From: Schmidtea polychroa
Lineage: Eukaryota
Length of the DNA stretch: 64,000 nt
Direction of reading: 5' to 3'
Assembly (NCBI GenBank): GCA_044892525.1
Contig: CM097887.1
Location: forward strand, 87,708,397 to 87,772,396
Shown here: one piece after another, positions 1-27,044 of the stretch
Layout: the number at the start of each line of letters is the position of its first letter
Position numbering within the stretch: position 1 is the stretch's first letter
The notes under the pieces: generated by a model
Told to the model about the DNA's origin: nothing
Seen by the model: the letters and a program-made list of their open reading frames with translations, nothing else
Database searches by the model: none
Made by a program: the position numbers and the translations under genes

Positions 1-6
1 ATAAGA

Positions 7-777
7 ATGGGAACCGGGAGATTACCCGTACCAAATATTTACCCAACGGCGTATGAACCAAATTGGGCAGCAATGGACCCAACAATGATCAAGCCAATTA
101 AAAATGTGGGGCAAGAGGTGGAGACACGAACGATTGCGGTATTGCAGACACCAGCAGGACCATCGTTAACTATCACGGTCGAAGTAAACGGAATAGAGAT
201 GGATGCAATGATTGATACCGGAGCAAATATCTCAGCAATAAATATGAATATGCTACCAGGAAGACTATGGCCATGCATTGAGGAAACAACCATGGATGTA
301 ATAACATGCAGCAAACAATCCATAGCGGTAGTAGGAAGAGTATGGTCAACGATCGAATACGAAGGGGTTAAAGTTACAACGTACCTCGCAGTCATTAGAC
401 AGCTAAGCGTATCATGTATAATTGGAACAGATGTAATGCCGGAATTATTGAAAGAAATTGTGATTGATTTGAGTTCCATGAAATTCAAAGATAAAACTGG
501 ACAGATATGCACAATGAGAACAGAAGTGAGATGCTCCGAAAAAATGATAATACCAGCACGTACCCAGACAATATGTTATGTCAAGGTCGATAACGAAGCC
601 AAAGGAGATATGATATTTGAACCAAGTCAAAAATTCGAGAAGAGAAGGGAGCTGCCATTGGCAAGAGAAATTGTCAGTATAAATGAGGATAACGAGATAC
701 CCATCAACATCACCAATTTTGATGAGGAAGATAAAGTAATCTACGAAAACAGAGACTTGGAAAACTCACACCAATGA
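7..777 (+). pseudogene. Aspartic protease plus following spacer (dUTPase-like beta) region of the element A polyprotein, cut off from RT by a 1-bp deletion
   Basis: AMIDTGANISAI motif (D at 214-216). Restoring one base after 750 gives YENERLGKLTPMMNIEL, matching element B YENERLGRLTPMIDIEL. Confidence 0.9.
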
Positions 778-3700
778 TGAACATTGAGCTGCCGGAGATA
801 AAAAGCGAGGGAGCAGACGAAAAGGAATTATGGACCATCGATAGCGAACTCCTAAATGAAGATGAAAAGGAACAACTCAGACAACTACTGATTGAGTTTA
901 AAGATATTTTTGCGGCTTCAGATTTGGATCTGGGTACTAGCGATGTAACTCAACACATTATACCATTAACGGATGAGACACCCATAACTTTGAGACCATA
1001 TCGATTAGCCGAAGCACAGAAAACGGTAGCAGAGGAGGAAGTACAAAAGATGTTAGATGCCGGAGTGATAGAACCTAGCTGTTCACCATGGCAATTTCCA
1101 GTGGTAATGGTCAAAAAGAAAGATGGCACACAGAGATTTTGTATCGATTATCGGAGGTTGAATGCAGTAACAAAAAGGGATACATACCCACTGCCAGATA
1201 TTAACGAAATGTTACAGATGTTACATGGAGCAGCATACTTTACATCTTTAGATCTAAAGAGCGGATACTGGCAAATTAAAGTTAAAGAGGAAGATAGAGA
1301 AAAGACAGCCTTTACCATCGGAAAAGATTTATATCAGTTTAAAAAGATGCCATTCGGATTAACAAACGCACCTGCTTCGTTTCAAAGATGTATGAACTTT
1401 GTGACACACGGAATTAAACAATGTATGGTGTATATTGATGATCTGTTAATTTATTCAGGTACTTTCGAGCAACACTTAATCGACATCAGAAACGTATTCA
1501 TAAGACTGAAACAATGGAAGCTGAAATTGAAACCGTCAAAATGCGATTGGGCAAAGGAGAGAGTCACATTTTTAGGACACATTGTGTCGGCAAAAGGAAA
1601 AGAACCAGATCCGAGAAACGTTGAGAAAATAAAGAATTGTCCGATACCAAAAACCGTGACTCAGGTACAAGAATTTCTGGGTTTATGCGGATACTACCGC
1701 AAGTTCATCAAAAATTATGCAACTATCGCAAAACCAATTCAGGAACTAACAAAAAAAGATACTCCATTTCTGTGGGAAAGGGAACAGCAAATAGCTTTCG
1801 AATCGCTAAGAGATAAACTAATAGCCTCGCCTATCTTAATCCACCCAGATTTCAAAAAGCCTTTTTTATTAGCAACTGATGCAAGTGGATACGCATCAGG
1901 AGCTGTGCTAGGACAATGGGATGAGGAGAAAAGAGAAAGAGTCATCGGATATTATAGCAAGACGTTCAAAAAGCACGAAAAGAATTACTCAGTCACAGAA
2001 AGAGAAGCTTTAGCAATAATTCAGGCGATAAAACATTTCAAATATTTATTATGGGGGCACGAGATAATTATTACTACGGATCACCAACCTCTAGTTTGGT
2101 TGGGCCAACATAAAGAAGCATCTAGCCGATTAATGAGATGGGCAATGCAATTACAGGAATATTCCCCATATATCAAGTTCAAGTCAGGAAAAGCAAACGC
2201 AAATGCAGATTGCATGTCGAGATTCGTATTTGAAGAACTCATGGATCATGACGTCAGGCGAATATGCATGATAATCGCGGAAGACATCGATTTTACCAAT
2301 CTAAAGAACGAACAAAAGGAAGACAGCGAATTGAAACTAATAATCGAATTCCTGGATAAAAACGATATGAAAATATTCAACAACGATGATCGACTAAAAG
2401 AACACATGGAGAAAAATCGTCACAGATATACGATCGAGAAAGGATGGCTATTGGTAATGGATGGCGACAAACGATTGATGTGCTTACCAGAAAGCAGGCG
2501 GAAAGAAATTATGATTCAATACCATGACGGTAAATTAGGCGGACATATGTCAGCCAAGAAAACAGAAGCCAGGCTTAAACAGAAATATTACTGGCCAAAT
2601 ATGAGCGATGACGTGAAAGAATGGATAAAGAACTGTTTGATATGCGCGACTAGGAGAACAACGGGCAGCAAATTAAAACCGCCCTTGAAACCAATGCCGA
2701 TACCGCCAGAACCAATGACAATGATTGCAATGGACGTGGTTGGACCACTACCAGAAACCAACAGCGGAAATGTGTATATATTGGTAATAACTGATTATCT
2801 GACTAAGTTCCCTGAAGCATTTGCGATGCCAGACCAAAAAGCACGAACGGTTGCAAGGATATTAGTGGAAGAGATCTGCTGCAGATATGGAACACCAAAA
2901 CAAATCTTAACTGACCAAGGAACTAATTTCATGAGCGAGATAATAAATGAAGTGACAAATTATTTCAGAATTGCCAAATTGAGAACCTCGCCGTACCACC
3001 CGCAAACGAATGGTCAGACAGAAAGATTTAACGGCATACTAATAGACATGATGTCAAATTATGTAAGTAAACATCAAAAGGATTGGGATGAATATATTAA
3101 GTTGTGTCTAATGGCTTACCGAATGTCAATACACTCAGCAACGAAAATGAGTCCGTTTAAACTCATGTACGGAAGAGAATGCAACACGCCGATGGATCTC
3201 GAATACCAACCGCCAATCTCACAGTATATGGAGATAGATGATTATGTGACAAAGTTCAAAGAGAGAATGCAGGAAATATGGAAAACCGCAGGAATGAACA
3301 TCCGATTCAACCAGGAAAGTTATAAAGAATTACATGATAAAAAGAAGAACGTGCAAAACCATCAATTTAAAGTCGGAGATTGGGTTATTATAGAAACACC
3401 CGAGTTAATCCCAGGAACAGCAAAGAAATTACAACGTAATGGCAGAGGACCATATGAAATCATCTATGTAAACGAGAACAACGCTCGAGTAAAGTTGGTT
3501 AACAATCCACTAATTAGACCCATATACGTGAATACATGTCGATGTAAAGCAGTAGCTAAAACTGCCACTAAAGACCCAGAAACAAGGAAGATAATCACGA
3601 GATCACAAACAAATGCCACAACAGAACCAGAGGTAAGCGGTAGATTAACTAGATCACAGACAAGACGGATATTCATGTTGAGGGGAGAAACAAGCAGCAG

Positions 3701-6431
3701 CGCCAATAAAGAAACCGAAGCAGAAAGCGAAGCTGACGCAATGGCAAGGAGCCAAGCGACATGGAATATGACAGTAAAAATAGCACGAGAAATTGTACCA
3801 GAATGGGCTGATATAACCAATAAATACCAAGTATTAGGCAAACTAATGATAGTAGCAGAAAGATATGCAAAAGGACGAAGGTATGCTGAGGGATTACAAG
3901 TACCAGTCCAAATATATGAACTAATCCGGAGATTACCAATCATGTTCCTCACAAGTGATTTGAGTAATAACTGGCCAATCCATCATGCAGTCAAAGCAGG
4001 ACAGGAAAAACGAGCATTAGAGATTATACGAATAATGGAAAGTTGCAAGCAATCGACAAACGTTAAAAATAGTAAAGGGAAAACTCCACTGATGAAAGCC
4101 ATAGCAATAGGCGCGTCAAGAGAAGTACTCAGAGAATTATTGAGAACGGGATCTACGTTGAAAGAAAAAGACAATAAACAACGAACCATTTTACGTTACG
4201 CCGTCAAGTCAAAAAGACCTAGCATACTAAACTTTATCACGGGAAATGCAACAACCGAAGAAGCCGAGGTGCTGGGACAGAGCATTGAACCAATTCTGGA
4301 AGCCATCAGAGGAAACTTAGACAGAACAGCAGCAATGTTAATCAAATGGAAACAAAACGAATTAAGAGCGGAAGTAATTGACATAAATCAATTCCAAAAC
4401 AACGAAAACATCGTACTAAGAAGCGCCATATACTCAAGACCGCCAATGCCAAAAACCATTAAAGCAATATTACAAAGAAATAGAGCAGAATTGACAGGTA
4501 ATTGGTGGAAATGCACAAAAACACATGCGATGAAAAAGCAACTAGAAATACTAGTGTGGGAATGGCACCGGAAACAACGGAAATATCAAGGAACCAAAGA
4601 AGAACGAGAAAGTATCCACAACGACAAGAAAGAGATAATTAAAATATACGAGGAGATGATCAAAGCAGCAAATGTCGAGGACGACATTTTCGGGAAAACC
4701 CCGGGTGAGAGGAATGACGATGACGACGACGACGAAAGGATGGGGGATAACGATAACAACCCAGAGGAAAACGACAGAGAACAGAATCCGGAGGGCGGAG
4801 AAACAACGGATGATGATGAGGAATTGGAAGAAGACGAAGAAGACCAATGTCGAGGTGAAGATCAAGGATTCGACAAAACGAAGAACAAAAAACGAAAGTC
4901 CCCACTACATAGCATAGTGTGTCGAAATCAAATCCAGCCAATCCTACTACAAAGAATATTTATAATATTAACATCCATCTGTTTAACGGAAACAAAAAAT
5001 ATGAGAATCGTAAGAGAAGCTTTCCAAGAAGGCGAAGTATTTATGATAAAAGTCAGCGATTACGACGGAAACGCCGTCGGAATATGTGTTCAACTAATGG
5101 AAGGAACAGGAGTAAGTTGTGATTTCAGATCGATAACAAAAGGAAAGATTTTTAACAGCCAAAAAAGAGACCCCAGGCTATGTGGAGATTATGACATTTG
5201 TAAAGACATAACAACAGAGGAAATGGAACTAGAAAGAGCTAATGAAACCGGAGTACATTTTCAACTCAACATTTTGGAAGAAGGTATCGAAATAGAAGAT
5301 AAAGGGAGTCGATCAATTACACATGTATGCATCAGAGAAGACAGAGACATATGCATAATAACTGATATGACACAAGACCACAAATTCTTCTGGGGAGAGG
5401 TCAAACCAAATACCCCTACTGTGGTATGCGCAGGAACACAAGGGATAGTAGTATGTAAAGGAACAAGAACTGCACCAAGAAAAGACAAGCCGAAGAGTAT
5501 GGCAATGAAACAAGATCCATTGAGGGGGATAACAACCAAGAAGCCAAACAAAACAGTTAGTACAAAAACAACAACAGAGCAGAATCAAACCGAATTAATA
5601 ATAACAACAACATGGATCAACGAAGTAATTAAAGACGAAAGACGGGAAGTGCAGATAACTATTAACCTCAACAAGAAAGGTGAAGAGGTAATTACAGTCA
5701 AAAACCAAGAAGGAGAACCAATCATAAGGATATGTGTAATGGATAAGACGGGAATAATCGACTGTACAACAACACCGATAGACAAAGGTGCAGACGTCAA
5801 AATGGAGACAGGAAAACGAAAAGAGCGATACCAAGTATGCATCCTCAAGAAAGGAAGAGGAACCAGCGTATGTCAGCCAATAACTCGACAAAAATCCCAA
5901 TTAATAAACATGCCATGGACACCCCGAGACCGAGAAGGGGGAGAGAAACGGGAAAATCACAGTCACCTAACAGAGAAGGAGAAGGAACGATTACATCAAG
6001 CATTCAAGAAAATTAAAACACCAGAAACGAATATCACAAGCAGTACAATATTAACGACAGAAAAAACAAACAAGGGAACAACGATAATCACAAAGATGAT
6101 ATGGATAACTAGCGCGATAGTAAGCACGGTAATAGCGTTAGTAGTGATTCAATGGATAAGAACCACCAAAAGATGTAAACAAAAACCGAGAAACCGAAGA
6201 AAATGGCCCAAGGTAGAAAAATTTGAATACGGTATTCCAACAGAAAATCTGAATCTAGAAGAATACGAGGTGGTAGAGGATCCCGGATCCAGCGGATTGT
6301 GGATGTCGGAACTACCAAGAATACCCACACCTAACGAATGGACACACGAAGTCGATATATACCGAATAACGGACGAAAGATATGGGGGAATGCGCACGCT
6401 GCATTCCGGCCCCATGGCGACACTGGTATAA
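774..6431 (+). CDS. pol: RT-RNaseH-integrase, then one ankyrin module, an acidic stretch and a C-terminal membrane protein (rest of the element A polyprotein)
   Basis: YIDD at 1431-1442, LATDAS, HHCC and D-D-E integrase motifs, GPY; ankyrin-like WPIHHAV, KGKTPLMKA, KQRTILRYA; hydrophobic segments near 4953-4995 and 6098-6157. Confidence 0.95.
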   Translation: MMNIELPEIKSEGADEKELWTIDSELLNEDEKEQLRQLLIEFKDIFAASDLDLGTSDVTQHIIPLTDETPITLRPYRLAEAQKTVAEEEVQKMLDAGVIEPSCSPWQFPVVMVKKKDGTQRFCIDYRRLNAVTKRDTYPLPDINEMLQMLHGAAYFTSLDLKSGYWQIKVKEEDREKTAFTIGKDLYQFKKMPFGLTNAPASFQRCMNFVTHGIKQCMVYIDDLLIYSGTFEQHLIDIRNVFIRLKQWKLKLKPSKCDWAKERVTFLGHIVSAKGKEPDPRNVEKIKNCPIPKTVTQVQEFLGLCGYYRKFIKNYATIAKPIQELTKKDTPFLWEREQQIAFESLRDKLIASPILIHPDFKKPFLLATDASGYASGAVLGQWDEEKRERVIGYYSKTFKKHEKNYSVTEREALAIIQAIKHFKYLLWGHEIIITTDHQPLVWLGQHKEASSRLMRWAMQLQEYSPYIKFKSGKANANADCMSRFVFEELMDHDVRRICMIIAEDIDFTNLKNEQKEDSELKLIIEFLDKNDMKIFNNDDRLKEHMEKNRHRYTIEKGWLLVMDGDKRLMCLPESRRKEIMIQYHDGKLGGHMSAKKTEARLKQKYYWPNMSDDVKEWIKNCLICATRRTTGSKLKPPLKPMPIPPEPMTMIAMDVVGPLPETNSGNVYILVITDYLTKFPEAFAMPDQKARTVARILVEEICCRYGTPKQILTDQGTNFMSEIINEVTNYFRIAKLRTSPYHPQTNGQTERFNGILIDMMSNYVSKHQKDWDEYIKLCLMAYRMSIHSATKMSPFKLMYGRECNTPMDLEYQPPISQYMEIDDYVTKFKERMQEIWKTAGMNIRFNQESYKELHDKKKNVQNHQFKVGDWVIIETPELIPGTAKKLQRNGRGPYEIIYVNENNARVKLVNNPLIRPIYVNTCRCKAVAKTATKDPETRKIITRSQTNATTEPEVSGRLTRSQTRRIFMLRGETSSSANKETEAESEADAMARSQATWNMTVKIAREIVPEWADITNKYQVLGKLMIVAERYAKGRRYAEGLQVPVQIYELIRRLPIMFLTSDLSNNWPIHHAVKAGQEKRALEIIRIMESCKQSTNVKNSKGKTPLMKAIAIGASREVLRELLRTGSTLKEKDNKQRTILRYAVKSKRPSILNFITGNATTEEAEVLGQSIEPILEAIRGNLDRTAAMLIKWKQNELRAEVIDINQFQNNENIVLRSAIYSRPPMPKTIKAILQRNRAELTGNWWKCTKTHAMKKQLEILVWEWHRKQRKYQGTKEERESIHNDKKEIIKIYEEMIKAANVEDDIFGKTPGERNDDDDDDERMGDNDNNPEENDREQNPEGGETTDDDEELEEDEEDQCRGEDQGFDKTKNKKRKSPLHSIVCRNQIQPILLQRIFIILTSICLTETKNMRIVREAFQEGEVFMIKVSDYDGNAVGICVQLMEGTGVSCDFRSITKGKIFNSQKRDPRLCGDYDICKDITTEEMELERANETGVHFQLNILEEGIEIEDKGSRSITHVCIREDRDICIITDMTQDHKFFWGEVKPNTPTVVCAGTQGIVVCKGTRTAPRKDKPKSMAMKQDPLRGITTKKPNKTVSTKTTTEQNQTELIITTTWINEVIKDERREVQITINLNKKGEEVITVKNQEGEPIIRICVMDKTGIIDCTTTPIDKGADVKMETGKRKERYQVCILKKGRGTSVCQPITRQKSQLINMPWTPRDREGGEKRENHSHLTEKEKERLHQAFKKIKTPETNITSSTILTTEKTNKGTTIITKMIWITSAIVSTVIALVVIQWIRTTKRCKQKPRNRRKWPKVEKFEYGIPTENLNLEEYEVVEDPGSSGLWMSELPRIPTPNEWTHEVDIYRITDERYGGMRTLHSGPMATLV

Positions 6432-6580: not shown

Positions 6581-7036
6581 ATGAACCAGAGAAACGAAGA
6601 ACAGGAACACCCAAATGGGATACCACATGTTGTTGAAGTAAGAGAACAGCCACTAATGAATGTGCATCCAGTGGACATGATAGAAATGAACGTGCCAAAC
6701 CAGCCGAGTCAGCCAACAGGATCCATGTGGAGGGCACAGTGTGAATTAATGACCCAATTGACAAATCAGACTCAAGAGCATTGGGTACGAAATCAAACGG
6801 CGTTGATAGAGAGTATTAATAGAAATGCAATATATATTACAAAAATAGAGGAACAACACCAAATAATCGCGCAACTAGAGTATAATAACAATCAGTTAAT
6901 AAGCCAAATCAGATGGCAAGCGGAAGAAATTAGAAGGTTGCATGAAAATCGACAACATGATGATATTACCAGTTTAGTCGAGTGGATGACCGGGTTACCA
7001 GGAACAGGGGAACCGGACTCGACGGTTGATGTATAG
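6581..7036 (+). CDS. Accessory ORF-a (151 aa, coiled coil), homolog of 27045-27404
   Basis: MWRAQCELMTQL..LIESIN aligns with MWKQQCAMLTQV..LVESLN, in the same position after the polyprotein. Confidence 0.8.
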   Translation: MNQRNEEQEHPNGIPHVVEVREQPLMNVHPVDMIEMNVPNQPSQPTGSMWRAQCELMTQLTNQTQEHWVRNQTALIESINRNAIYITKIEEQHQIIAQLEYNNNQLISQIRWQAEEIRRLHENRQHDDITSLVEWMTGLPGTGEPDSTVDV

Positions 7037-7124
7037 AAGGGAGAGGAGTAAAATGTAAATAATCTTGTAAATAAATAAAGTATAACCAAGCAGAATCCCA
7101 AGATTTAAAAGTTATCATTGTAGA

Positions 7125-8549
7125 ATGCAAAACAAATCAGAAGAAAACCGAAGAGAAGTAGAGGAACAAAAGATTAACTATGAGTTGATGAGAAAATACC
7201 AAGCCAAGCCGGACGAGTTCGAAGAGAGACTATTATGTGCCGATGCAGCCTGTAGAAAACTATTAATTGGAGCAAGCCAAACTCGATGCGGTTGTAGACT
7301 GTGCCGAGGGTGTGATATAAGATTGGCCAAACTAAAGCGAGAAACTTGTCCAGGATGTGGAGAAGCATTTAAGTTGGTTCCCACTGGCACGATACCGGAT
7401 AGAGCAATGAACCGAGAAATCAGAGAAGTGAAAATAAGATGCACCCAAAGGTCATGCGAATGGACAGGTCGAGTAAAGGAGTTGAGAGCCCATACCGACG
7501 TATGCGAATATTTAGAATTAGAATGCGAAGCATGTAAGGTAAAGTTCTTTCGAAAAGAGAAAACCAAACATAAAGGAGAATGCGAAGCACGAACGGAAAA
7601 ATGCGAATTTTGCGGAGAAACCGCTAATTGGAGAGAGATCGAAATGGAACACCGAAACGCAGCAGAAAGACGGATTTGCGACGAATACACAGGGAGATGC
7701 CCAAACGAGTGTGGAGAAATTAACAACGTCAGATTAAATGAACATTGGGAGATATGCACGAGAAAAGCGATAAAATGCCCAATGGTGACATTCGATTGTA
7801 GAGCACAATTACCAGCAGAAGAAATGAAGAAGCATGTGGAGGAGAATACATTCGAGCACATGCAAAAGATGATGAGAGCAATAGAGTTAACAGCAAGGGC
7901 AATCGAAGACGTTAAAGACTAACTCAAATCACATAAAATCATGATAAAAGAAATGCTGAGCTCACAGGAAAGTTTCGAAAATACGAGAGAAGCCGTAATA
8001 CAAAGAATGTTGAAGTTAGACGACAAATTAGTCGAAGTAAATAAACTACAAACCAAATGGATGGCAAAGGAACTGCCAACAGAGGAACTACCAATATTAC
8101 CATACATGTGGAAAGTCCAAGGAATAACAGAAATAATGGAGCAAGCAAAGCAAGGAATCCAGACAACGATAGTGAGCAAACCATTCTACGCCAAGAAACA
8201 TGGATGCAAGATGAAATTAAGATGGTTTCCAAATGGTGATGGAAAGTTTAAAGATCGATGCATGTCCTTTTATATGCAAATCTGTAAAGGAGAGTTTGAC
8301 GACCTAATAGTATGGCCATTCCGACATAAATTAAAAATATCTCTCTTAGGATCAAAAAAGACACATATAATGTGCTGTCGAGCATCAAGTCCAGCATGGA
8401 ATAAACCGATTACAGAGGTTAATCCTGCGGTAGGAGTAGCAGAGTTTATGCAGCTATACCAGTTCAATGACGGTTCCTACATAGAAAAGGACACCATATT
8501 CTTCCTAATTGAACTAGACGAGGTAGGACCAACAATAGAAATACGATAG
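7125..8549 (+). pseudogene. TRAF-like gene (RING, TRAF zinc fingers, coiled coil, MATH) with one in-frame TAA at 7920-7922
   Basis: ORFs 7125-7922 and 7941-8549 share a frame. MATH signature YMWKVQG..SKPFY..GCKMKLRWFPNGDG..WPF. Colinear with the intact 25573-26961. Confidence 0.9.
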
Positions 8550-8705
8550 ACGGATAGAAGGAAACTGTAAATATTTTGTAAAAACAATGTAAAGTAATTA
8601 GATAAAGTAATTATAAAGCTACTGTATAAAGTAAAATAACTCACCAAAACCATAAAAAATTAGAAAAAGGAAAAATACAAAAAGAAATGATGAAATTTAT
8701 TATAG

Positions 8706-9887
8706 ATGAGTAATCAAGAGAAATCGAATATCCGAAAGAAAACGATCACAATGAGAGAAGGAGAGGACGATACGTCATCCGGAGAAAAGGTAGGAAGTTC
8801 GGAAGTCAGCAGAACAAAACCCAGTGGTTTCACGTACTATCGAAGAATTGTGGGAAATGGTTATAGCTTAGTGCAGGGAGATTTGAGGCAGGGGAGTGAT
8901 GAGCAATTCAGATGTGAGAACCAGAGATACCTGTCGTTTAAACACCAGACCGTTTTCACAAAGGAACAGAGCCGAGCACTGGCACTCAACGGATTTTTCT
9001 TCTCCGGAAAACCAGAGATACCCGATCAAGTAACGTGTCGTTTCTGTAAAGGAAAATTAGCAGAATGGAAAAAAGGAGAACACCCAAAGGAGGAACATCG
9101 TAAACGATTTCCAACTTGTCCGTTCGTACTGGGATTTGATGTACACAACAAACCGGAAATCAAATACGAAGCCTTGGAGAAATTGAAAACCGAAGACGAA
9201 AAAGGAGGGAAAATGAGCATCGCGATAACCAGAATCGTTGATGAATATGTTCCAACTTGTGAAGGGGAATTCCTCACGCAAATAGCGGATAATAGAATGA
9301 AAACGTTCGGAGATGATACGAGAGGACCTGAACTAGCGATAAGAGGATTCTATCTAACAGAAAAGCAAATACTCAAGTGTGAGAGATGCGAAAGCCAACA
9401 GAGATTACCGGAAGAAGGCATACCAGAAATTAGACATCAAGCATGGTGCCTATATCACAACGAACAAGAAACCGAATATCCGGAAGTACTAGTAACAGAG
9501 GAAGAGGTTGACGAAGTTGTAGACAAGCCTAACATGTGCAGAGCGTTGAAAGCAGCCGGAATAGGCACGACAAGGGCAAAGAACATGATTAGGGAGAGAC
9601 TACAGAAAAACGTACATATACCAACAACAACGTACGACATGATCAGGGCGATAACCCAGTATAGAGAAAAACCTGAAACAAAAATAAAAGAAGAATCAAT
9701 GGTCAAAACAGCTATCTTACGAGATATCAAATGTACTATGTGTTGGGAGAGGAGTGTAGAAGTTATTCATATGCCATGCGGACATTTGATCGCATGTGCC
9801 ACGTGTAGTAGGAAAATAAAAGAATGTCCAATGTGTAGACAGAGGATTGCGCAGCGAATCAAAGGATTTCGCTACGCCGATCAATAA
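8706..9887 (+). CDS. IAP-like protein: canonical BIR, degenerate second BIR, C-terminal IAP-type RING
   Basis: LALNGFFF..VTCRFC..LAEW..HPKEEHRKRFPTCPFV; second CERC..H..C; CTMCWERSVEVIHMPCGHLIACATCSRKIKECPMCR. Confidence 0.93.
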   Translation: MSNQEKSNIRKKTITMREGEDDTSSGEKVGSSEVSRTKPSGFTYYRRIVGNGYSLVQGDLRQGSDEQFRCENQRYLSFKHQTVFTKEQSRALALNGFFFSGKPEIPDQVTCRFCKGKLAEWKKGEHPKEEHRKRFPTCPFVLGFDVHNKPEIKYEALEKLKTEDEKGGKMSIAITRIVDEYVPTCEGEFLTQIADNRMKTFGDDTRGPELAIRGFYLTEKQILKCERCESQQRLPEEGIPEIRHQAWCLYHNEQETEYPEVLVTEEEVDEVVDKPNMCRALKAAGIGTTRAKNMIRERLQKNVHIPTTTYDMIRAITQYREKPETKIKEESMVKTAILRDIKCTMCWERSVEVIHMPCGHLIACATCSRKIKECPMCRQRIAQRIKGFRYADQ

Positions 9888-9969: not shown

Positions 9970-11549
9970 ATGAATAAAGAATCACAAACCTATGTGGAAA
10001 CCGAGATGCAACAACTCGAACAGTACAAATCCATCATACAAACATACGAAGCAGAAAGAGTAAAGAGAGAAATAGAAATGTACAAAACCATGTATGAGAA
10101 AAAGCAACAAGAGTTAGAAGTGGAGAAGGCGGAAGCACTAGCAGCAAAAGAGAAGTGGATGAAACAGGTAGAGGAATTAACCGAAGATGTGAGAAATACA
10201 TCAACATACCAAGAATTGGAGGAGGAGCTCTCGAACTTACGAACTCAGCGGATTATGGAGATAGTTGGGTTATGCGGAGAGATAATAATGCAGAAGACAC
10301 AAATTACGAGGAAGAACAGCGTAAAACGGAACGAATAAAACTGCAAGCGCAACAATGGAAACGAAAATACGAAACCCTCCAAACGAGACAGAATGATAGT
10401 CACGAACATCAAATACGAGGGTATAAAGTAGAACTAGAAGAAGCAAAGAACCAATGTGCAATGATGAAAGAAAAATGGGAAAGATGCAAAAGGACCCTAA
10501 GCGAAGTCAGGGGACAAGGGAGGAGAACACCACGTAAAGAACCAATCGTTAAAGATAACGTATTAGAGCGAATTAACACACAAATAAAGATACAAGCTCA
10601 GAAATGGAAGTATAAATACCTAGGAAGTCAAACCCAAGTGCTCTATTGGAAAATCAGTAGCAAGGAACAACTGCGATTACGAAAAGCAGACCAAGAATTT
10701 TACGAAATAAGGGCTACACAGCGAGAAGAAGAGGAAGTAGAGTGGAGAAAACGACAGCAGAAATTTGAGGAAACCGAAGAGTGTCTCAAGCATCAAGCCC
10801 GAAAATGGAAAAAGAATTGGAAAGAGACCAAAGAGGAGTTAAGACAGTTACCAATGAAACTGATGGAAAGAGACGAATTTAAAATGTGGGAAACGATAGA
10901 AAACCAAAAAGATGAGATCAGCCGATTGAGTAGAGAACATAGAATCAAGACGCGGACCAGCGACGGTAGACGGAGAGTCATAAAGAAACAGACTCGAGAG
11001 ATAAGAAGGTATGAATACCAGGAAAAGAGATGGGAACAACAATTGACAGACCAAGATCGACAAATCCGACAATTACAAACAGAGGTAGAGGAAGCTAATC
11101 AAGAGATGAACGGATATAAAGGTATGTACACCCAAAGGGATGTGAATTGGAAGCATCAGACTGCGCTTAATGCGAAATGTAGAGAGGAGTGCGATAAGGC
11201 AATTCAACAAGCCAAACAGGAAACCGAGATAATAAAACGATGCTTCGAAGAAAATGAAGCGAATCTGAGAGCAGAAATCGAGAAGTTGAAAATGCTTGAA
11301 AAAACCCAACGATTGGAAGAGGAATTGGATGAGATGATAGAAAACGAAAGTAGATTAACGTTTCTGTTGGATGAAGAAATAAACATCTCAACGGAATTGC
11401 GGGAGGAAGTAGAGCGGTTAAGAAGACAACCACCAATACTATTAATGCCACTCTACCCGTTCCCATTACAAGTGCCACAGCCTGCCGAAGTCACAACAGA
11501 TGAAGGCTTCGAAGAAAATAACGAACAAAATAACGCAACATGGATTTAG
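9970..11549 (+). pseudogene. Long coiled-coil accessory gene split by a frameshift (9970-10338 and 10155-11549); homolog of 24315-25352
   Basis: Shared ARKWK..LPMKL / ARNWK..LPMRL and LTFLLDEEIN..DEGF / LTYLLDEELN..DEGY. Confidence 0.8.
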
Positions 11550-11704: not shown

Positions 11705-12418
11705 ATGAATTATTTAAAAGACAGAGAATCAACGAGTAACGCAAGAAAATCAATTGACCAACCCGAACAAAGCCAGAATACGATACCAATCAAACAAGAA
11801 CCGATGAAATATTATAGTAATAAATGGAGAGTCAGCAAGAAGTTGTTCAAAACAAAAATCGCAAATCAAAATGTAGAGATTACGAGATTGAGACAGCATA
11901 TTGTTCAATCAAGACGATTAATAAACACTGTCAAGCAGGAAATTTTGAGGGAAATAAATGAATCGAAACTAAAAGAGACGGAAAATAAAAACCTGAGACA
12001 AGAGATAGTAGAGTTGAGAGCTCAGGCAGTAATCGAAGACTATTGGAAATCAGAAACAAGGAAGTTGAAAAAGATTGTGAATATCGACCAAGTTTATATC
12101 GAACAATTGGAAGCACAATACGCTTATGCAAAAACGAGAATGCGGGAAAGTAAAAAGGTCGACAAGAGAAACGCAAGACTCAAGGAGGAGATCAAGGAAC
12201 AAAGAGAGGAAACAGAAAAACAATGGAAGTTGAAAGAAAATTATCGGAGAATTTTAAATCAAAAACGACGAAGCATGCAAGCACTGCAGACGACAATGAC
12301 CATCAGACAGAGAAAATGGAAAAGTGAAGAGAAGCGATTACAAGAAATACCAGAATTAAAGAGACAGTTGATGGCAACGCAACTCGAAGTAATAAGGATG
12401 AACGAGTTGAGCACCTGA
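11705..12418 (+). CDS. Short coiled-coil accessory ORF, homolog of 23439-24140
   Basis: VIEDYWKSETRK vs VISDYWKTEARK; IPELKRQL vs LPELRKRV. Start placed at the ATG following TTTTTGTAG. Confidence 0.8.
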   Translation: MNYLKDRESTSNARKSIDQPEQSQNTIPIKQEPMKYYSNKWRVSKKLFKTKIANQNVEITRLRQHIVQSRRLINTVKQEILREINESKLKETENKNLRQEIVELRAQAVIEDYWKSETRKLKKIVNIDQVYIEQLEAQYAYAKTRMRESKKVDKRNARLKEEIKEQREETEKQWKLKENYRRILNQKRRSMQALQTTMTIRQRKWKSEEKRLQEIPELKRQLMATQLEVIRMNELST

Positions 12419-12537: not shown

Positions 12538-13524
12538 ATGAGAAGCCTAACCGTGGTGATAATTATAATGACAATGCCCAGAATCCTGCAAGCTGAAGAA
12601 TCAATGATCAGATGCCAGAAAGAATACCCATATCGCAGAGAAGATAGCACCTGTAGTAGCTTTAAATCAATCTGTGAAAAACCCAATGAAGAATGCGAAC
12701 AAATCAAGTTGCAATGTTCGCAATGTCCACAAACAACTGGAAGTTCGACGGAAATGCAAATGGCTCAGACAATGAAAACAATATTAGAACAAGAAATGAA
12801 AGTTATCAGAACCCAGATAGCAACATTAGCCAAACAATTCCAAAGCCAGAAATCAAAGAAAGAAACCCAAACGGATCCGGCCGCAATGAGAATGATGGTA
12901 ATAATATTAGAGGAAATAAAACAACAGGTAACAGCAACCGCCAATGGACGTTCAAGCAATTGCGAAATAGTAGTAAAATCTTTAGAGGAAATGAAAGGAA
13001 AAATAACTTCCATCATCAAAGAGGAACCCAGCATTAAAAATGAGGTAACGAAAACCTTGAAAGAAATGACAAAAGAAGTCCTAACTACCATAAACAAAAA
13101 CCCAATGAACTCCGAGAAGATGATTAAAACCCTGGAGGAAATAAAGAAAGTTGTCACCTCGGAAGAAAACAAATTCAACAAACCCGAAAAATCAGAAATT
13201 ACAGATACAACCCAATTGGGAGAAATGATAAACAAACCCAGAGTAGTAGAACTAAGAGAATCTGAACCCCTCACAATATTGATCCTATTAACGGCAAGCC
13301 TAATGATAAACATTACCGTACTGAGCCTGATTGCACTCAAACCCAATTCCAGTAAAGCAAGAAACAAAACCCTCAAACTAAAAGAACAATCAAAGAGTAT
13401 TCGTATCCCAATGGAAGAACAGCTAATCCAAACAACGAACCAACCAAGATACTTCAAATCTTCCCCAAACATCGAAACCAGAGCCGTCATCGAGACGAGA
13501 TCCCGAACAACAGAATTCTATTAG
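12538..13524 (+). CDS. Predicted type I membrane protein (signal peptide, Cys-rich N-terminus, coiled coil, TM); positional counterpart of 22712-23383
   Basis: Hydrophobic N-terminus MRSLTVVIIIMTM and TM-like LTILILLTASLMINITVLSLIAL; last ORF before the LTR in both elements. Confidence 0.75.
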   Translation: MRSLTVVIIIMTMPRILQAEESMIRCQKEYPYRREDSTCSSFKSICEKPNEECEQIKLQCSQCPQTTGSSTEMQMAQTMKTILEQEMKVIRTQIATLAKQFQSQKSKKETQTDPAAMRMMVIILEEIKQQVTATANGRSSNCEIVVKSLEEMKGKITSIIKEEPSIKNEVTKTLKEMTKEVLTTINKNPMNSEKMIKTLEEIKKVVTSEENKFNKPEKSEITDTTQLGEMINKPRVVELRESEPLTILILLTASLMINITVLSLIALKPNSSKARNKTLKLKEQSKSIRIPMEEQLIQTTNQPRYFKSSPNIETRAVIETRSRTTEFY

Positions 13525-13862: not shown

Positions 13863-13883
13863 TATGGGCCCCCGAGTGTTTTA

Positions 13884-16511
13884 TGTTGGGCTAGAACTGA
13901 TTTCTAGACCCAAACTACTAATTGTGACTGAAACGTGCAGGTACACAACATGTAAAAAGCAAAAAGTATAGTTAAATATTAAAACCTACACCAAATAAAC
14001 AATATTAACTAAAGGAGAAAGCAACAAAAACATAAACAAAGAAATTAAATAAAATTATACAGAAGCAAGAAGTGATGCAAAAATCTAACTCAAAAATAAC
14101 CAAACAAACATAGAATTACCAAAAGCAAACTCGAATAACTTAAAAGACGATAAAAATAGTAAAACATTCCAGAAAAACCCAGAACATTCTATAAAATGGC
14201 GATGACCATCACAAAAGTCATCTAGAACAACAAAAGTTAAGGAAAATAAATAAATTAGTATTAAAAATAAAAAATCTCAAAAAGAAATTCATAAAAACAT
14301 CAGTTAAAATAAAAATTAAATTAAAAGTAAAATAGAATGTTCTGGAACCGTTCCAAATCCATCATGGACGTAAATTAATGAAAAAATAATTAAAAAATAA
14401 AAATTTAAAAATAAAAACAAAAATTATAGCACTAAAATTTCCACAAAAAATATAAAAATCATGAAATAGAAAATTCTGGAATAAAAAGAATTCGAGTTTG
14501 TTTTAATGCATCAATACATACACGTGTACAAAATAGGTATATATACTGACACGTTTCAGTCACAAGAATCACTTTTTATGCCAAATTCTTTTTTGCGAAA
14601 ACCTGAAGATAGTGAGTATTTGTTATTGGAATTTTGATGTATAATGATATTATTTATTTTTTTTTTTAACTTAACTTTGATCGTTATTGTTAATATTAAT
14701 TATGCTTAGATCAAACCATGCTTATCATTTTTATCTCATGTAAGAAGGATCGGCGGCGTATTGATACATATGCGTCTCTGATCAGTCCTACATTCGATCA
14801 ATTTGTAAAATCTATAGCACATGCAGACACGCAATATACCTTATATATTTTTTTTTGTTTGGTCATCGGAGGTCGGCCACTTCATGGTTCTACCATGGAG
14901 TTGTGTCGATAAAACCCCTCCGCTATGGCTCCATATACTTTATTTATCGGTCGACAGTGATGTTTCGACTCAACACAACAGTAGGGCTTGTCGTAGCGGT
15001 CACAGTGGGGCCGTGTAAGCAAGCATTCTTCCCGACTATGAATGCATTACACAATTAAAATCACCACTAAAAATTCTATACACTAAATTACACTAGAATT
15101 CTAATCGAGTAGATCTCAGACCCAAATTGAACACAGCAATTACAATTCGGTTAATGTAGTCGGTTAAGACCTCTCCACTTACACGTTTGTCGAACCTCAT
15201 TGAGAAATAATTTTTCGTATCAGTGTAAATGTCTTTCTCGAAATTAACCGTAATAATGCTCACAAAGAAGTTCGACAAGCGTGAATCGTAAAATGAACTA
15301 TATACTCTCCTGTTACACTTAAATATCAGTCTATAAATATATGATATTCCTAAACTATAGAATTTATGTTAGAATCGCTAAATACTTAGAATTCCTAAAT
15401 GGTAAACTATAACTTACTACTGTACTTAGAATTATATTTGATAAATATGTAATACCTCTAAATTATCAATATAAGTTTATATCGTATAATTGATGAATGT
15501 GTAAAATCCTAATTTATAACATTTTACTTCATATTGTTTTTAAAAAAATATAATTCATAAATATGTACTATCTCTAAAATTATAAAATAATTTGATATTG
15601 TAATTTGTAAATATGTAATACTCCTACAGAATAGAAAATAATTTTATATCAAACTTAAAAATATAATGTATAACTATGTAATACTCCTAAAGTATAAAAA
15701 GTAATTTGATATCGCACTTAAAAATATAATTTATAAATATTAAATGACGAAATCTAACTTTATATTGTTCTCGAAAACATAACTTGTAAGTATTTCATAA
15801 TAAAACTGAACTTTAGGTCTTATTGAATGTATAATATATAAAGATATAATAATCCCAAAGGGTAAATATACCGTTATATTATACCTAAAGCGTAAGCTAT
15901 GAGCATTGAATTATAATATATACCTTTGTATTAGCCTTAAAAATGCAATGTATTATTACGTAATGATAAAAAATATCCTTATTTACAATCCATAAACGTT
16001 AAAGTACAAGATGCATCTCCAAGTGCATAATGTGTGAATGTATAATAGTTCTGAATTATGAGCTAGAATTTTATAATCCACTTAAATACACACATATCTA
16101 AACCAGAAACTAAAATTTTATATAAAGAATATAACTTATAAATGTCGGAGTTATAAATTATAATTCCATAATACCTCAATGTATCATTTATAAAAACCTA
16201 GATTATAAGTAGAATTATGCCCTTTCATTTAAATATATAATTTATTATAAACTATACTTTGATTAAATGTGTAAGTTATAAATACCTGAAGTGTAACTTT
16301 AATAGATTATGGAATCTAGTTTAAAATATAAGGTAAATCATTTATATATTTAGTTATTTGAATTAGAAATTAGGATTTTCATATAACCATATGCTTGGAT
16401 AGCAATGAGAAAGAGGCTATAAAAGGAGTTAAGTAGAACAGATCCTCCTAACGGTAGTCGTTAACTGACAGCCACCCGCTCATGTCACATTACCAACGTT
16501 ACTCCCCAACA
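13884..16511 (+). repeat. 3' LTR of element A (start well supported, end tentative)
   Basis: Starts TGTTGGGCTA like the B LTR, A-rich first 600 bp, TATAAAAG at 16418-16425, CCAACA ending at 16511. Confidence 0.6.
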
Positions 16512-17099
16512 GCTGCCAAGAGCTCAAATAACATTATGATTTACCCAATTACAATACCGTTACATAACAATGATATCGTAGCACAAAACGACATGTTATT
16601 ATTTCTTATTCGTACAAATCAAACTGACAGAGTGTAAATTAATTCAGCATTCTTGTCAATGAAATACCTAAGTAAAAGTACGATAAATAAATCCTGATTG
16701 AAATTTGCTACCCTAACATTAATGTTTCAATCAAAACACCCATTACTCGTCGTTTTATAGATTATTACTCAAAAATTTAATACGACTGTACGTCCATTTT
16801 ATGGAATAGTTATAACAAGACAAATTTTGTTTTACTCTTGAACAAAAGGCCCGTATAGATTATCAGTAAGACATTCTTGACGCTGCAGATGGGAATTGGC
16901 ATACATTCATGATTCGTCCCACATGTGTTATTTCCTGGACGGCTAAATTCATCTGGATCCGAAAATTGAGACAAACACCTTTTATTCGATTTAGTTAAAT
17001 CTGGACCTTTGGTCTAACGATAAATTTTCTTGAACGACAAGGACAAAATATTATTTTAATTTCGACATGTTGAAAAGGATAAGGATAAACATAATCAAC

Positions 17100-17451
17100 T
17101 CAATAGGTTGTTTCCATTTGTTGTCTATCAAATCCAAAGCGATGTCTTGGAAATCCATCATCATTATAATTGGCATCAAGAAGAGGACTATCAATAGCTT
17201 CAACAGAAAACCTCGGCATTCCGTTGTCAAGTTCCAAATGATTAATTTTCTTTTGCTAACAAAATTCTGGATAAGTACTTAATGATGTTTTCTAAAATTC
17301 ATAGTTTAATATTTAAAAATAATAATAAATTTACATCAGGCGATCCTCCTAAATATTTATATGTTGATGAGTGAAGTGATCTCTGTTCGGCAATATTAAA
17401 ATCAAAGTCTTTAGGTTCTGATTCTCTAGCTTGATGCCTGTATTTGAAAAA
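17100..17451 (-). pseudogene. Possible relic of a spliced gene: two in-phase exons (17451-17335, 17291-17100) around a 43-nt GT-AG intron, one internal stop
   Basis: Manual translation FFKYRHQ...GGSPD|KTSLSTYPEFC*QKKINHLELDNGMPRF...TTY*; no family recognised. Confidence 0.3.
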
Positions 17452-17949
17452 CTTTAAAAGAAAAACTAAAAATTATGCAAAGAATTACCAGTTGCCTGTT
17501 TCTACAACCCTGCTGTAATGACTTGCATCACCTTTAAAAGATCCGGGGGAACAATTCATTTAAATTCTCATAAAACGGCCATGATTTTCGCTAATTAAAC
17601 AACGATTACTGTGATAAAACAAAAGGCCTTAAGTCAGGGTGACGATAATAATTGTAAATGATTAAATTTGGATAAAAGTTATTTAATTTTAAGTAGTTAA
17701 AAATTAAATTGGTAAAACCTATACACCAACTTTAAATTTTCTTTCATTAAAGTTATTTAATTTTAAGTAGTTAAAAATTAAATTGGGAAAACCTATAAAC
17801 AAAACTTTTTTTTTTTTCTTTAATAAAAGTAGTTATAACAATCGTAATAAACTTAGTCATTGATATGTGAGTTAATTCGATGTATTTTATTATGACGACC
17901 ATTAATAATTGCCGCGAGTTAAACGGGTATTAACGTTTACATTCCAGGC

Positions 17950-18288
17950 ATGGCACCACCAAACGATAACCTCAGCAGCGAAGAGGACGAACAATGGATA
18001 ATCACCCGCCTTCGCACGCGGTACATCTGGCACCATATTCATCGATGGTGTCAGGGGCGGGACCTGGACTGTTCCAATCGGATTATCCGGACCGGCCCAG
18101 AGCCCGATGCCCAGGCATGGGTGAAGGTAGAACCGGACAATGACTTGTTGCAGGAGGCCCGCGATCGGGCATCGATCGAGTTGGAAGCGGCCCAGATGCG
18201 GCTGAGGAGGATAGAACTCCAGATCAGAGCCGAAGCAGAAGGGAAAACCCTAGAGGAGCTGGAGGGGGTGGTTGCCCCTCCACGAAAA
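17950..18288 (+). pseudogene. 5' part (113 codons) of a small AT-hook ORF interrupted by element B
   Basis: The ORF track protein runs into the LTR after VAPPRK; removing B and one AAAA restores PPRKRGRPRKNPV*. Confidence 0.85.
18285..18288. other. Left copy of the 4-bp target-site duplication AAAA (right copy 48950-48953)
   Basis: Directly abuts TGTTGG at 18289 and CCAACA at 48949. Confidence 0.85.
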
Positions 18289-21200
18289 TGTTGGCGTATG
18301 TGGAGAAGAAAAAAAAATTATACATGCCTTTCCATCACACCTATCAAGCATCATGGCTCCGTTATACATTTTCTACACATACTCCAAATGATTGATTGCA
18401 TATTCCCACATATGAGCCCATGGTGATGTTCCATGTTGGTGCTGCTCACACGGGTCGGAAAAGGTTAGCAGGTGAGCCCCTGCCTTAGGACTACTCCTAA
18501 CCCTTTCTCAGTTCGGGTCCCACGGTGCCTTAGAAGGACTTACCCATATACATGCGTGTCACTCGGTCTGATCCTGGTCCAAAGGAACAACCTTCAACCT
18601 TAATTATCTTCATTCCGCAGCATTATCTCATCTACTCTAATTGCACAAACAAATATATGAAAGCTCGACAAAACTAAAATCAAACAGAAAATTTTATTGG
18701 CACTGAAACGATAAAAATATCATTACTACTAACAGATCAACAACAGTCAAAAAGATATAACATTAGCAACATTCACGAGATAATTTACAACTCAATGAAG
18801 AGGAAATCAAGCTCAATTTTACATCACATTAAACAAAGTTATCCCCATCGGCCAGTATCTCATCTATGTCGACCGGTAATCGGCTATCTACAATGTGTTT
18901 GATGCCCTCAGCTGGAACAATGCGGAAGACTTCCTTTGAGGGGATTGAATGGGAGGACGTTATCTCTTGGATTTTTGATTTCGCCGCCGATAAGGACGTC
19001 TCGAGTGCTGTCATCGCATCTCGGCGTTTTTGGTTCTTCTCGGCTCGAGTTGGCCGTTTCCGTTTGCGGGTAGTCGGGGGTTTTTCGGTGTTCGTGGTAC
19101 CGATTGGTGCTACCAAGATGGGAGCTACGATGGGATCAGTAGGTCCACCTATCTTTGGCTGGTGACATGACAACACCGGGGGTGGAATGGGCGGCAGTTG
19201 TGAGCCGTGCCCCTGGCAGTGCGAGCCGGAAGATGTAGGAGACGGGTGGTGACGAGGAAAAACATTCGTCCCATCCAGAACGGGGAATTCTCGCACCCGC
19301 TTAGCCAATTCTGCCTCCGTATATACCTTATGGAGGGCTTCTGACTGTGCTTTGATGGTGAGCCGCTGACAACGGCTTTCCTCTAGCAGGCTGTCCCTGC
19401 AATGCTCTAATCGGAGAATTTTCTTGCGTTCCTCTTTCATTTGTGGCGGGGAGAACCACGTTCCTTCATAGAGATCAATTCTCTTTTTGAGAGCCCCGAT
19501 ATATAAGTGGAGTTGGGCGATATCCGCGTTCTTGTCCGCACAAGAAAAACACGGGCGAAGTTCTTTGGCGTTGTTGGACGATGTAGCCATCTAGAAAATC
19601 AATCATTGTTTATATTTACTCGAAGAAACCTCTATCAGTGTGAAGAAAAATCAAATTTTTGGGCATGGTTTTGGAGTTTGATCAAACATACCACCCAACG
19701 ATGACCCACACACTTCTTCATCCATCTCTATACGCAGTCATTCAGTTGCAAACATTCAAATCTCTTCACCTGATTCGTGTAATTTAAGAAAAGGAAACGG
19801 GGATTCGTATACCAAAAATTCTTTCTACACAAACCTCGCCCTTTGAGTTTAATTTCGGATGGGCCATTCCCAGGTAAAACCCGTCTTTTACTTTATCCCC
19901 TTCAACCTTGTTCCCATTAGTATATTTTAATTAAGAATTTTTGCCGATATCATTATGGCAATTCGTCGAGGTAGGCCTGCCTAACATTACAGAGAAATAA
20001 TTCACGGCGACGGAATAGATTATTTATGTTTTTATCTCGTTCAAAATTATGGAATTGATTGTGTAATCAGTTGAAAATTCAGCTCTAATCTACATCTAAT
20101 TAATTCCAATAACGCGTCGAAAATCGTCGTCATGGAAAACGTTTACTTGTGATTATGCATTATGATTGACGGTGTAGGTGTGTCATTACTCCTGGTGGTA
20201 TCTGTAACTGTATGTTGGCTATCTCCGCGAATGATGGTTTATGCTGTTATAATAAATTATTGTATATCGAGTTGTGTAGGGGAAATCCATCCCCTTACTT
20301 CATCCTATTATCTCGCTATTCTAGAGAAATTTATACCATCATGCCGCTATTACATCACCAAAATCGTTGATTTCCTTTTACACTGCCCTATGCATATTTG
20401 ACTGTGGTGCGTGTGTATGTGCATGCTCAAGTCGGAATATTAGCGGTTGCGTAATAGATTCCTCAAATAAGCAGCCGTAGATGAATCGAAAAATCAGATT
20501 AATCAATCTGAGTGGGCGACAACTTCATAGATTATTGGGTAAGCTCAACAATATCATCTAATTTCCTTTTACGATATTAATTCAGATCAATGACTATCAG
20601 CTTATTCATTTGACATTTTCCCAGAAAAGTTAACATGTTATCTCCTTCTCCAGGACGTTATCAGATATCTCCTGTCGACTAACTCTACGCAGGCCAATGC
20701 AAATCAACTGATTTCGTTATCGTTGACAACTACTGTCTGCGGGCTCGAAGTAAGAATTTTGATAATTTCACTACAAGATGGTTACTTCCCTGTCAGCGAG
20801 AGATTCTTTATCACTGGCATTGGTGACTCAAGGACGACAATCAAATCGTAAGAGTACATCGACAATGGATGTAGCCGCTAACATCATGACGGCACAAATC
20901 AGACAGAACCTTGCAAACGCAGAGCGTCACCGAAAAATCGTTGGATTTACTTGCAATCTATGGTCGACACCGTTCTTTCCTAACTACGTCGATTGACCGG
21001 CTGAATATCACGAAAAGAATTTTCCTCCTATCTATGTGGATTATCATCGAATCTGTACGAACGTCACTGCCTATCTCGCTCTGAATTGTCTGCATTCGGA
21101 ATTCAAATCATCTCTACATCTACTGGAAATCTCGATTTAACTAAATGAACCGATGGTACGCTCTACAGACGATCGCGCTTGATGAAGGAACGGTCATTTA

Positions 21201-22525: not shown

Positions 22526-22546
22526 AATCACTCCGGGGCCCGTTAA

Positions 22547-22563
22547 AATTGCGCCCCGCAATT
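22547..22563 (-). other. Pre-LTR hairpin AATTGCG-ggg-CGCAATT of element B
   Basis: 7-bp stem about 21 nt before the 3' LTR; conserved with element A. Confidence 0.75.
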
Positions 22564-22711
22564 CACATAATATCATACGTTTAACTCATACCTTTTTTCG
22601 GCATAACAACTAATTTCACGGTCAACATTCACACAAACATAAAATTAAAATAACTAAATAATACTTTAATTAAACAGATAAAAGGACAAATATAAGCAAG
22701 CAGTGGCCACT

Positions 22712-23383: not shown

Positions 23384-23438
23384 ACTACTATACGAAAATT
23401 TTTATTTACAATTATTTACATTGATCATTCATCTTTAA

Positions 23439-24140: not shown

Positions 24141-24314
24141 TTTCTATAATATATACATAATTAATAATTGCGCTACAGTGCGGCTTATACTTATACATTT
24201 ATATGTTATTTTATAATCAGGGTTACAGTCCCTTTCATACTTTTACTGTACCATTAATTTTTTTGGTTGGGATACAGGTCCCGATTTTTATATTTTTTAT
24301 CTTTCCTTTTATCT

Positions 24315-25352: not shown

Positions 25353-25572
25353 CTTTGTCTAAATAACGATATCATTAACTTAACGTTGTACGCTTATATC
25401 TGGTTTATTATTTATTTATTTTTATAATTCGTTATAGGAGTTGTTTTAGGAGTTTTTCGCTTAAGTTTACCTTTGGTAGATTTGGGGGGAATTTTTCTAC
25501 ACTACTATATAATATTTTACTGGATATATACGCCGATATTTACAATTAGTATATACAAAATTATTCGTCTCT

Positions 25573-26961: not shown

Positions 26962-27044
26962 TTCTATAATTATACATATATTCGTTACTGGTACAGTTTC
27001 GTATTTTTATTTACATTTATTTACATTGCTATTTTAGGTTATAT

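Follow-up and report, generated by a model that had tools for sequence, protein, structure and literature searches.

TRAF and IAP genes carried side by side by a Burro-type retroelement of Schmidtea polychroa are under purifying selection and probably of host origin

What use does a retroelement make of genes for TRAF and IAP proteins, and do the two proteins act together? The question is raised by a stretch of 64,000 nucleotides of the Schmidtea polychroa genome (NCBI GenBank assembly GCA_044892525.1, contig CM097887.1, forward-strand positions 87,708,397 to 87,772,396; this whole stretch is called the window). Here a TRAF gene and an IAP gene stand next to each other on a long terminal repeat (LTR) retroelement, element A, and a second element, element B, is nested in its 3′ LTR. 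Element A is assigned to the Burro1/GYPSM1 type by its architecture as compared with the published description. A preliminary description of the window had taken the TRAF and the IAP for one module of TNFR/NF-κB control. Comparison of copies across the genome supports the conclusion that both genes are functional for the element and kept by selection. We consider it probable that they are two host-derived accessory genes of an env-bearing Burro1/GYPSM1-type element, and that they encode separate host-modulating proteins of the ubiquitin pathway. With functional genes for cell death and signalling on board, a retrotransposon would act within the host genome much as a complex virus does.

Structure of the TRAF and IAP genes

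The adjacency of the two genes was borne out: they are separated by a 156-base spacer, and both lie downstream of the segment encoding protease (PR), reverse transcriptase (RT), RNase H (RH), integrase (IN) and ankyrin repeats. Their features, in window coordinates, are as follows.

7125..8549 (+), TRAF gene of element A: RING (Cys for His), TRAF zinc fingers, coiled coil and MATH; in-frame stop at 7920-7922
8550..8705 (+), TRAF-IAP spacer: TGTAAATA, T-rich tract and a TAG abutting the ATG; the AG is kept in 21/21 copies
8706..9887 (+), IAP gene of element A: 393 aa, open
8898..9128 (+), canonical BIR: CX2CX16HX6C; type II groove residues K117, L118, W121, E125, E130 and F135, with R134 at the XIAP H223 position
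9282..9449 (+), degenerate second BIR: CX2CX15HX3C; dN/dS 0.03-0.05, the lowest in IAP
9498..9659 (+), helical bundle at the UBA position of IAPs: predicted fold, pLDDT about 76-85
9732..9839 (+), IAP-type C3HC4 RING: 8/8 zinc ligands and R378 in 21/21 copies

In the gene at 7125-8549, Pfam recognizes zf-TRAF and MATH. A full RING, TRAF zinc fingers, a coiled coil and MATH are joined in one chain in other copies of element A (474 aa) and in element B. The domain order given for this gene in the preliminary description, RING-zinc finger-coiled coil-MATH, thus stands, but the window copy of A is cut by the stop at 7920-7922. The RING has a cysteine at the usual histidine position, and so departs from the C3HC4 pattern with histidine; this substitution is common to three aligned single-frame host TRAFs and absent from two outgroup rows.

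The IAP open reading frame (ORF) contains a BIR (aa 77-141, E value 6e-16) and a C3HC4 RING (aa 341-383) according to Pfam, and the zinc ligands of both are retained in 21/21 copies. The BIR-BIR-RING architecture proposed earlier held for the first BIR and the RING. No canonical second BIR was detected by Pfam or by sequence search of the PDB, each of which found one BIR only; the second unit is a shortened, BIR-derived one (CX2CX15HX3C), which scored 16.2 bits against a hidden Markov model built from 250 of 420 canonical BIRs, with 300 shuffled sequences at 6.2 bits or below. Fold prediction of the IAP gave a predicted local distance difference test score (pLDDT) of 33 from a single sequence and 58 with eight sequences, the domains reaching 66-85. 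A UBA test on the helical bundle gave no score above shuffles. At 90-100% identity, 105 IAP copies were scored in the genome, which comprises 781 Mb with four large contigs, and 93 of them are stop-free, a count that is drawn from the best of 3344 candidates and is thus biased to intact copies.

Purifying selection on both genes

The window copy was aligned with 20 others, and four loci of low or uneven identity (L066, L070, L073 and L075) were left out, giving 17 copies. The pairwise ratio of replacing to silent substitution rates (dN/dS) was 0.16-0.22 for TRAF, 0.18-0.25 for IAP and, for RT and integrase, 0.02-0.03. Each range spans the estimates made with no transition weight and with a weight of 4; as the measured ratio was about 6, the true values are perhaps slightly higher. 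Changes shared among copies stood at 84:50 (silent:replacing) in TRAF and 78:58 in IAP (p < 1e-12 against neutrality). Within IAP, constraint is strongest on the second BIR (0.03-0.05) and weakest on residues 1-62 (0.44-0.64). The TRAFs of element B and of four B-like copies, which are about 70% identical in protein sequence, gave 0.07-0.21 when compared in 10 pairs; in the four most divergent of these the silent sites are close to saturated.

That the genes are mere passengers, captured host sequence decaying neutrally, is highly improbable in view of these values, which lie at 0.07-0.25 in both families and, being far below 1, reject neutral decay. Such decay would account for the stop in the window TRAF, for a TRAF frame that is broken or shortened in 11/30 loci (in 19/30 it is open to its normal end over the part covered), and for the weak constraint on the 62 N-terminal residues of IAP. 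Private changes in TRAF are, however, more often replacing than shared changes (Fisher p 0.009), an excess that is expected from decay after insertion. The preliminary description had named neutral evolution and lack of expression across copies as fatal to its proposal; in place of the former, purifying selection on TRAF and IAP was found.

The stop at codon 7920-7922 occurs in 3/30 loci, namely the window copy, its near-identical duplicate L002 and L018. The copy in L002, on the small contig G000:C467, is identical to the window copy across IAP and the TRAF stop, and is probably the window locus assembled twice.

BIR type and the lack of an IAP in element B

Aligned without gaps to XIAP BIR2, the intact BIR keeps K206, L207, W210, an acidic residue at D214, E219 and F224 (XIAP groove numbering as in PMC3760131). 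Each of these groove residues is found in 20-21 of the 21 copies, and E130 in 21/21. Type I BIRs, which bind TRAF2, are described in PMC6360406 as having Lys or Arg at the place of E219, with the TRAF2-binding face opposite the peptide groove. The element IAP shows neither this Lys or Arg nor the loss of the groove. Judged by these residues, the intact BIR looks to be of type II (XIAP BIR2-like) rather than type I, and is predicted to bind IAP-binding motif (IBM) peptides. Among PDB entries it matches XIAP BIR2 with an E value of 3.1e-11 and cIAP2 BIR1 of the TRAF2 complex (3m0a) with 1.4e-9.

Element B provides a second view of the TRAF gene.

18288..48951 (-), element B: second Burro-type family, nested in the 3′ LTR of element A; no IAP
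25573..26961 (-), TRAF gene of element B: open, 462 aa, about 30% identical to the A TRAF
43774..44253 (-), ORF with coiled coil and IAP-type RING, upstream of the B gag; without BIR

The LTRs of element B (4240 bases) are 100% identical and its polyprotein is open (4626 aa). The intact TRAF ascribed to it was confirmed as an open 462-aa frame at 26961-25573 (-). In the genome, 92 copies of the B TRAF were scored, 84 of them stop-free, again among best-scoring candidates and so biased to intact ones. Element B and the four B-like copies have an array made up of a short ORF, TRAF, coiled-coil ORFs and a last ORF, with no IAP in 5/5 examined.

These results bear on whether the TRAF and IAP of the element bind each other as one ubiquitin ligase module on a host receptor pathway, like the mammalian TRAF2-cIAP1/2 complex (PDB 3M0A), which likewise joins a RING-ZnF-CC-MATH TRAF to a BIR-RING IAP. 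The two genes are adjacent and both under selection, and the BIR also resembles cIAP2 BIR1 (3m0a, E 1.4e-9). With the TRAF2 face opposite the groove, one BIR could in principle carry both, and the degenerate second BIR, the most conserved part, must bind something. However, the TRAF2-cIAP1/2 complex uses a type I BIR1, whereas the only intact BIR of the element has type II groove residues, and the element IAP lacks the third BIR and the CARD of cIAP1/2. Furthermore, TRAF is under equal selection in element B and the four B-like copies, where there is no IAP. Adjacency itself is expected, because all accessory ORFs lie in one head-to-tail array, which sets any two of them side by side. The type II BIR and the TRAF without IAP in B-type copies thus make a TRAF2-cIAP-like pair unlikely, and the single TNFR/NF-κB module of the preliminary description is not supported: the groove of the sole intact BIR is type II, and 5/5 B-type copies have TRAF without IAP. 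A genome search for the Rel-homology domain gave 0 candidates; its control also gave 0, so that absence of NF-κB is not shown.

Probable origin from planarian host genes

In trees with host TRAFs and IAPs, a check suggested in the preliminary description, both element genes group with planarian host genes. A full-library search with the IAP yielded three proteins of note, P0024, P0150 and P0152, which form one group with the element IAP (support 96 in a mixture-model tree of 26 rows, 99 in a fast tree of 110). A counterpart of P0150 lies at C2:155.10-155.11 Mb in at least four intron-separated pieces that are 58-84% identical, in a stretch that ends before its RING end. The shortened second BIR is also present in P0150 and P0152 (CX2CX18HX3C). 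P0024 is 40% identical to the element IAP and has no close match in the genome (best 40%); it may come from a related element elsewhere. A word-indexed homolog search with the IAP found no homolog among 3200 candidates. From the trees and the gene structures, we infer that the element IAP, seen only in the A family, is an intron-less copy from a planarian host IAP lineage; the direction of capture is firm for IAP because the host gene has introns.

A word-indexed search with the B TRAF returned 21 distant proteins, which were used as outgroup. The TRAFs of A and B form one group (94), sister to nine single-frame host TRAFs and L162 (90; joint 92), and are closest to the host single-frame TRAFs at 29-35% identity. 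The TRAF appears to have been captured from the host early, before the A and B families split, although the host-to-element direction is less firm here.

Planarian host TRAFs form an expanded family (PMC6109357, PMC7586133), of which the three aligned single-frame members have the Cys-for-His RING of the element TRAFs; this expansion is separate from Burro. A Burro origin of the expansion was considered and is unsupported: of 1551 candidate MATH loci, 150 were scored, and the 30 best, which were read, all lie outside Burro elements. The MATH exons clustered on chromosome 2 form a separate group (92). At least nine single-frame host TRAF genes, with no introns seen, lie outside Burro, some as near neighbours (L114-L117, L119, L121, L125 and L160 among them).

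Two further observations concern IAP-like sequences. P0152 is a 403-aa IAP encoded on a 16-kb contig, and no relatives of it were found in viral contigs. A host BIR exon, L099 (G000:C1:86057244-86057414), is unrelated to the element and is presumably BIRC6-like.

Proposed function

We favour separate roles for the two proteins. The IAP would work like XIAP BIR2, DIAP1 or the baculovirus IAPs: its type II BIR would bind the N-terminal IBM of caspases or IAP antagonists, its RING would ubiquitinate the bound proteins, and cells where the element has escaped repression would have a higher threshold for death. The TRAF would act apart from the IAP, as an adaptor or ubiquitin ligase (E3) or as a decoy in host TRAF stress and immune signalling. 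This mechanism, which we take as the most likely, draws on the established biochemistry of IAPs and TRAFs. Two published results fit it: knock-down of a host TRAF raises cell death in planarians (PMC7586133), and BURRO1 RNA is up in live differentiated cells after RNA interference (RNAi) against smedwi-2, that is, on PIWI loss (PMC8532177).

The likeness to baculovirus and other large DNA virus IAPs (BIR-BIR-RING) lies in a host-derived IAP carried by a mobile genome. Baculovirus IAP-3 proteins are the best fold matches to the element IAP in a viral library (E 1e-11), with 11-29% identity to the viral IAPs in the top 50. In contrast to the viral proteins, the element IAP is borne by an LTR retroelement, has a degenerate second BIR and groups with planarian-type IAPs.

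Several points weigh against this reading of function and origin. Purifying selection tells us that the element uses the genes, but not for what. R134 stands in place of the groove residue H223/W323, and in the window copy of A the in-frame TAA at 7920-7922 splits RING-ZnF (265 aa) from coiled-coil-MATH. The IAP group is made of long branches; the TRAF tree was made by a quick method with a long-branch warning, and no deep branch in it reaches 95; a MATH-only tree does not hold the A and B TRAFs together (72). The smedwi-2 phenotype was not improved by BURRO1 RNAi (PMC8532177), which argues that any effect on the whole animal is not large. At three other places, env-bearing relatives have neither TRAF nor IAP in the 20-40 kb read, so that spread in general does not require them; a TRAF near one such relative, at C2:120.39 Mb, is a host gene in pieces.

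The proteins might instead serve the cycle of the element, through ubiquitin-dependent assembly, trafficking or release of Gag/Env particles or through removal of silencing factors, and not cell survival. The polyprotein includes an env-like fusion protein, the element has three RINGs, a second MATH in ORF1 and a weak ubiquitin-like match, and the MATH and RING parts, unlike the BIR, are common to A and B. The retained IBM groove points rather to caspases or IAP antagonists, and neither gene was seen in the stretches covered of the env-bearing relatives; we regard this alternative as quite unlikely.

The results sharpen the published Burro idea: the genes are selected and appear host-derived, the IAP is predicted to bind IBM rather than TRAF, and the TRAF would be older than the IAP in the lineage. 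Gene-specific RNAi in planarians, with and without PIWI loss, makes the claim testable.

Architecture of element A and relation to the published Burro elements

Element A is a Ty3/gypsy LTR element of about 36.6 kb in total. Its two LTRs measure about 5.57 kb each, match at 99.96% identity and enclose an internal region of about 25.5 kb. Pfam places PR-RT-RH-IN between the long LTRs and ankyrin after IN. ORF1 encodes, in order, gag with CCHC knuckles, MATH, a weak ubiquitin-like match, an env-like protein, protease, RT, RNase H, integrase and ankyrin; it is spread over three frames in the window copy and is 4791 aa where open in A-type copies. The env-like fusion protein lies between gag and protease (PF24664, E 2e-70 in A and 6e-72 in B). 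Of the other modules listed in the preliminary description, ankyrin was recovered by Pfam and the ubiquitin-like match is weak (OTU1_UBXL, E 0.0018); no Bcl-2 family match was found by Pfam in the proteins of A or B, a result that covers Pfam and not profile-profile search. The gag, MATH, env and 5′ LTR lie upstream of the window. Six accessory ORFs follow ORF1 head to tail; besides TRAF and IAP, the window holds the following parts of element A.

1..6431 (+), 3′ part of the polyprotein: protease at 1-777; after a frame break, RT-RNaseH-integrase-ankyrin at 774-6431
6581..7036 (+), 151-aa accessory ORF: homologous to the 119-aa ORF of B; dN/dS 0.07-0.10
9970..11549 (+), coiled-coil accessory ORF: two frames in the window copy
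11705..12418 (+), second coiled-coil accessory ORF
12538..13524 (+), accessory ORF with hydrophobic ends
13883..18287 (+), first part of the 3′ LTR, interrupted by element B
48952..50116 (+), second part of the 3′ LTR

The preliminary description had cautioned that its proposal might be partly known, rightly so: the domains and a host-meddling hypothesis are in print (PMC6431247). For Burro/GYPSM1, MATH_TRAF_C, BIR, ankyrin, BCL2-like, ubiquitin-like and env domains are given, and interference with apoptosis and ubiquitination is proposed (Arkhipova & Yushenova 2019, PMC6431247). The same source places MATH on an accessory ORF in a related species, and cites Jurka 2007 and Grohme 2018 for Burro1/GYPSM1 of Schmidtea mediterranea. 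Like element A, Burro1/GYPSM1 has an internal region of about 25 kb in a total of more than 30 kb and a single very long ORF1, whose parts are gag (three CCHC knuckles), MATH, ubiquitin-like, env, PR, RT-RH-IN and ankyrin; the printed length is 4873 aa, against 4791 aa here. BIR, MATH_TRAF_C and Smc-like coiled coils are likewise present in that element as in A. The text of PMC6431247 gives domains only, and in that text there is no full TRAF or IAP downstream of pol, host origin, selection, BIR type or spacer signals. Our literature search, whose scope excluded most subscription papers, returned none on selection, host origin, BIR type or spacer signals of the element TRAF and IAP. The element and the host-meddling idea are thus already known, and the details of selection, origin, BIR type and spacers are new; the extended figures or supplement of Grohme 2018 may already describe the TRAF and IAP ORFs.

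Candidate spacer signals and expression of the accessory genes

The accessory ORFs sit behind a polyprotein gene of 14 kb and hence need their own route to the ribosome. The 11 inter-ORF spacers of A and B (window 6432-12537 and 23384-27572) are 55-220 bases long. An AG lies 0-3 bases 5′ of the ATG in 11/11 (background 0.216 per position; P 1e-4 for the six of A), and TGTANATA occurs in 11/11 (shuffle mean 1.3, maximum 5 in 2000 shuffles), compared with once in the 27.9 kb of the two polyprotein regions; the spacers of A and B may share ancestry and are not fully independent. In the four B-like copies an AG lies within 6 bases at 18/19 ORF starts, the starts being set by homology. The spacer before TRAF serves as an example.

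7037..7124 (+), spacer before TRAF: two TGTAAATA, AATAAA, T-rich tract and a TAG 1 base 5′ of the ATG; candidate 3′-end signal and splice acceptor

We take TGTANATA to be a Pumilio element that contains a UGUA cleavage-factor site. Its presence together with AG before the ATG in all spacers suggests release of each accessory gene by splicing, in cis or to a spliced leader. In this scheme the AG ahead of an ATG would be the acceptor through which splicing frees that accessory ORF from the long RNA, and TGTANATA would act as a 3′-end or stability signal or as a repressor site. Known spliced leaders of flatworms end in AUG. This AUG would be in frame at only 3 of the 6 downstream spacers of A, so that cis-splicing from an LTR leader is an equally likely route. 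A simple pattern search found no conserved splice donor in the leaders. Enrichment of AATAAA in the spacers was rejected (471/2000 shuffles as high), a further point against our reading. In runs X1, X2, X3 and X5, guessed to be RNA, contigs of the family lie over TRAF and IAP and some span spacers, with no joint at the candidate acceptors among the matches listed. In another flatworm, trans-spliced operons typically have spacers of about 100 bases (PMC8629364).

Tentatively, these signals may mark an operon-like array in which trans- or cis-splicing would yield single mRNAs for IAP, TRAF and the coiled-coil proteins, jointly keeping de-repressed cells alive. If they are splice acceptors, translation of ORFs behind the 14-kb polyprotein gene is explained. 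Within the scope of the literature search given above, no description of such spacer signals in Burro was found. Copies of TRAF and IAP borne by elements can pass for host genes in planarian transcriptomes.

Additional features

The second MATH of element A, inside ORF1 (L031:2425-6564), is 47% identical to the host TRAF L114 and nearer to it than to the TRAF of A itself; MATH is absent from ORF1 of element B. The MATH-only tree leaves the ORF1 MATH without a firm place, and it is possibly a separate capture.

The coiled-coil and RING ORF of element B has a counterpart in A at L032:9131-9613, also upstream of gag; both are about 160 aa, lack a BIR and are preceded by TAG. An array of 80-base tandem repeats lies between this ORF and gag in B (window 42672-43192), with a shorter repeat at a like place in A. 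A 7.66-kb tandem duplication (99.96%; L033-L032, window-relative -29730 to -14412) includes part of the 5′ LTR of A and is either a recent duplication or an assembly artefact.

Shorter env-bearing gypsy families (L145-L146, L148 and L151-L152) have a 3334-aa ORF with env between gag and protease, show neither TRAF nor IAP over the stretches covered, and are possible simpler relatives of Burro. Outside A and B, the window contains a near-perfect palindrome (97%) of 120 bases at 53089-53208 and, at 54226-55194 (-), a single-frame ORF of 322 aa for an FkbM-family methyltransferase with an N-terminal hydrophobic stretch.

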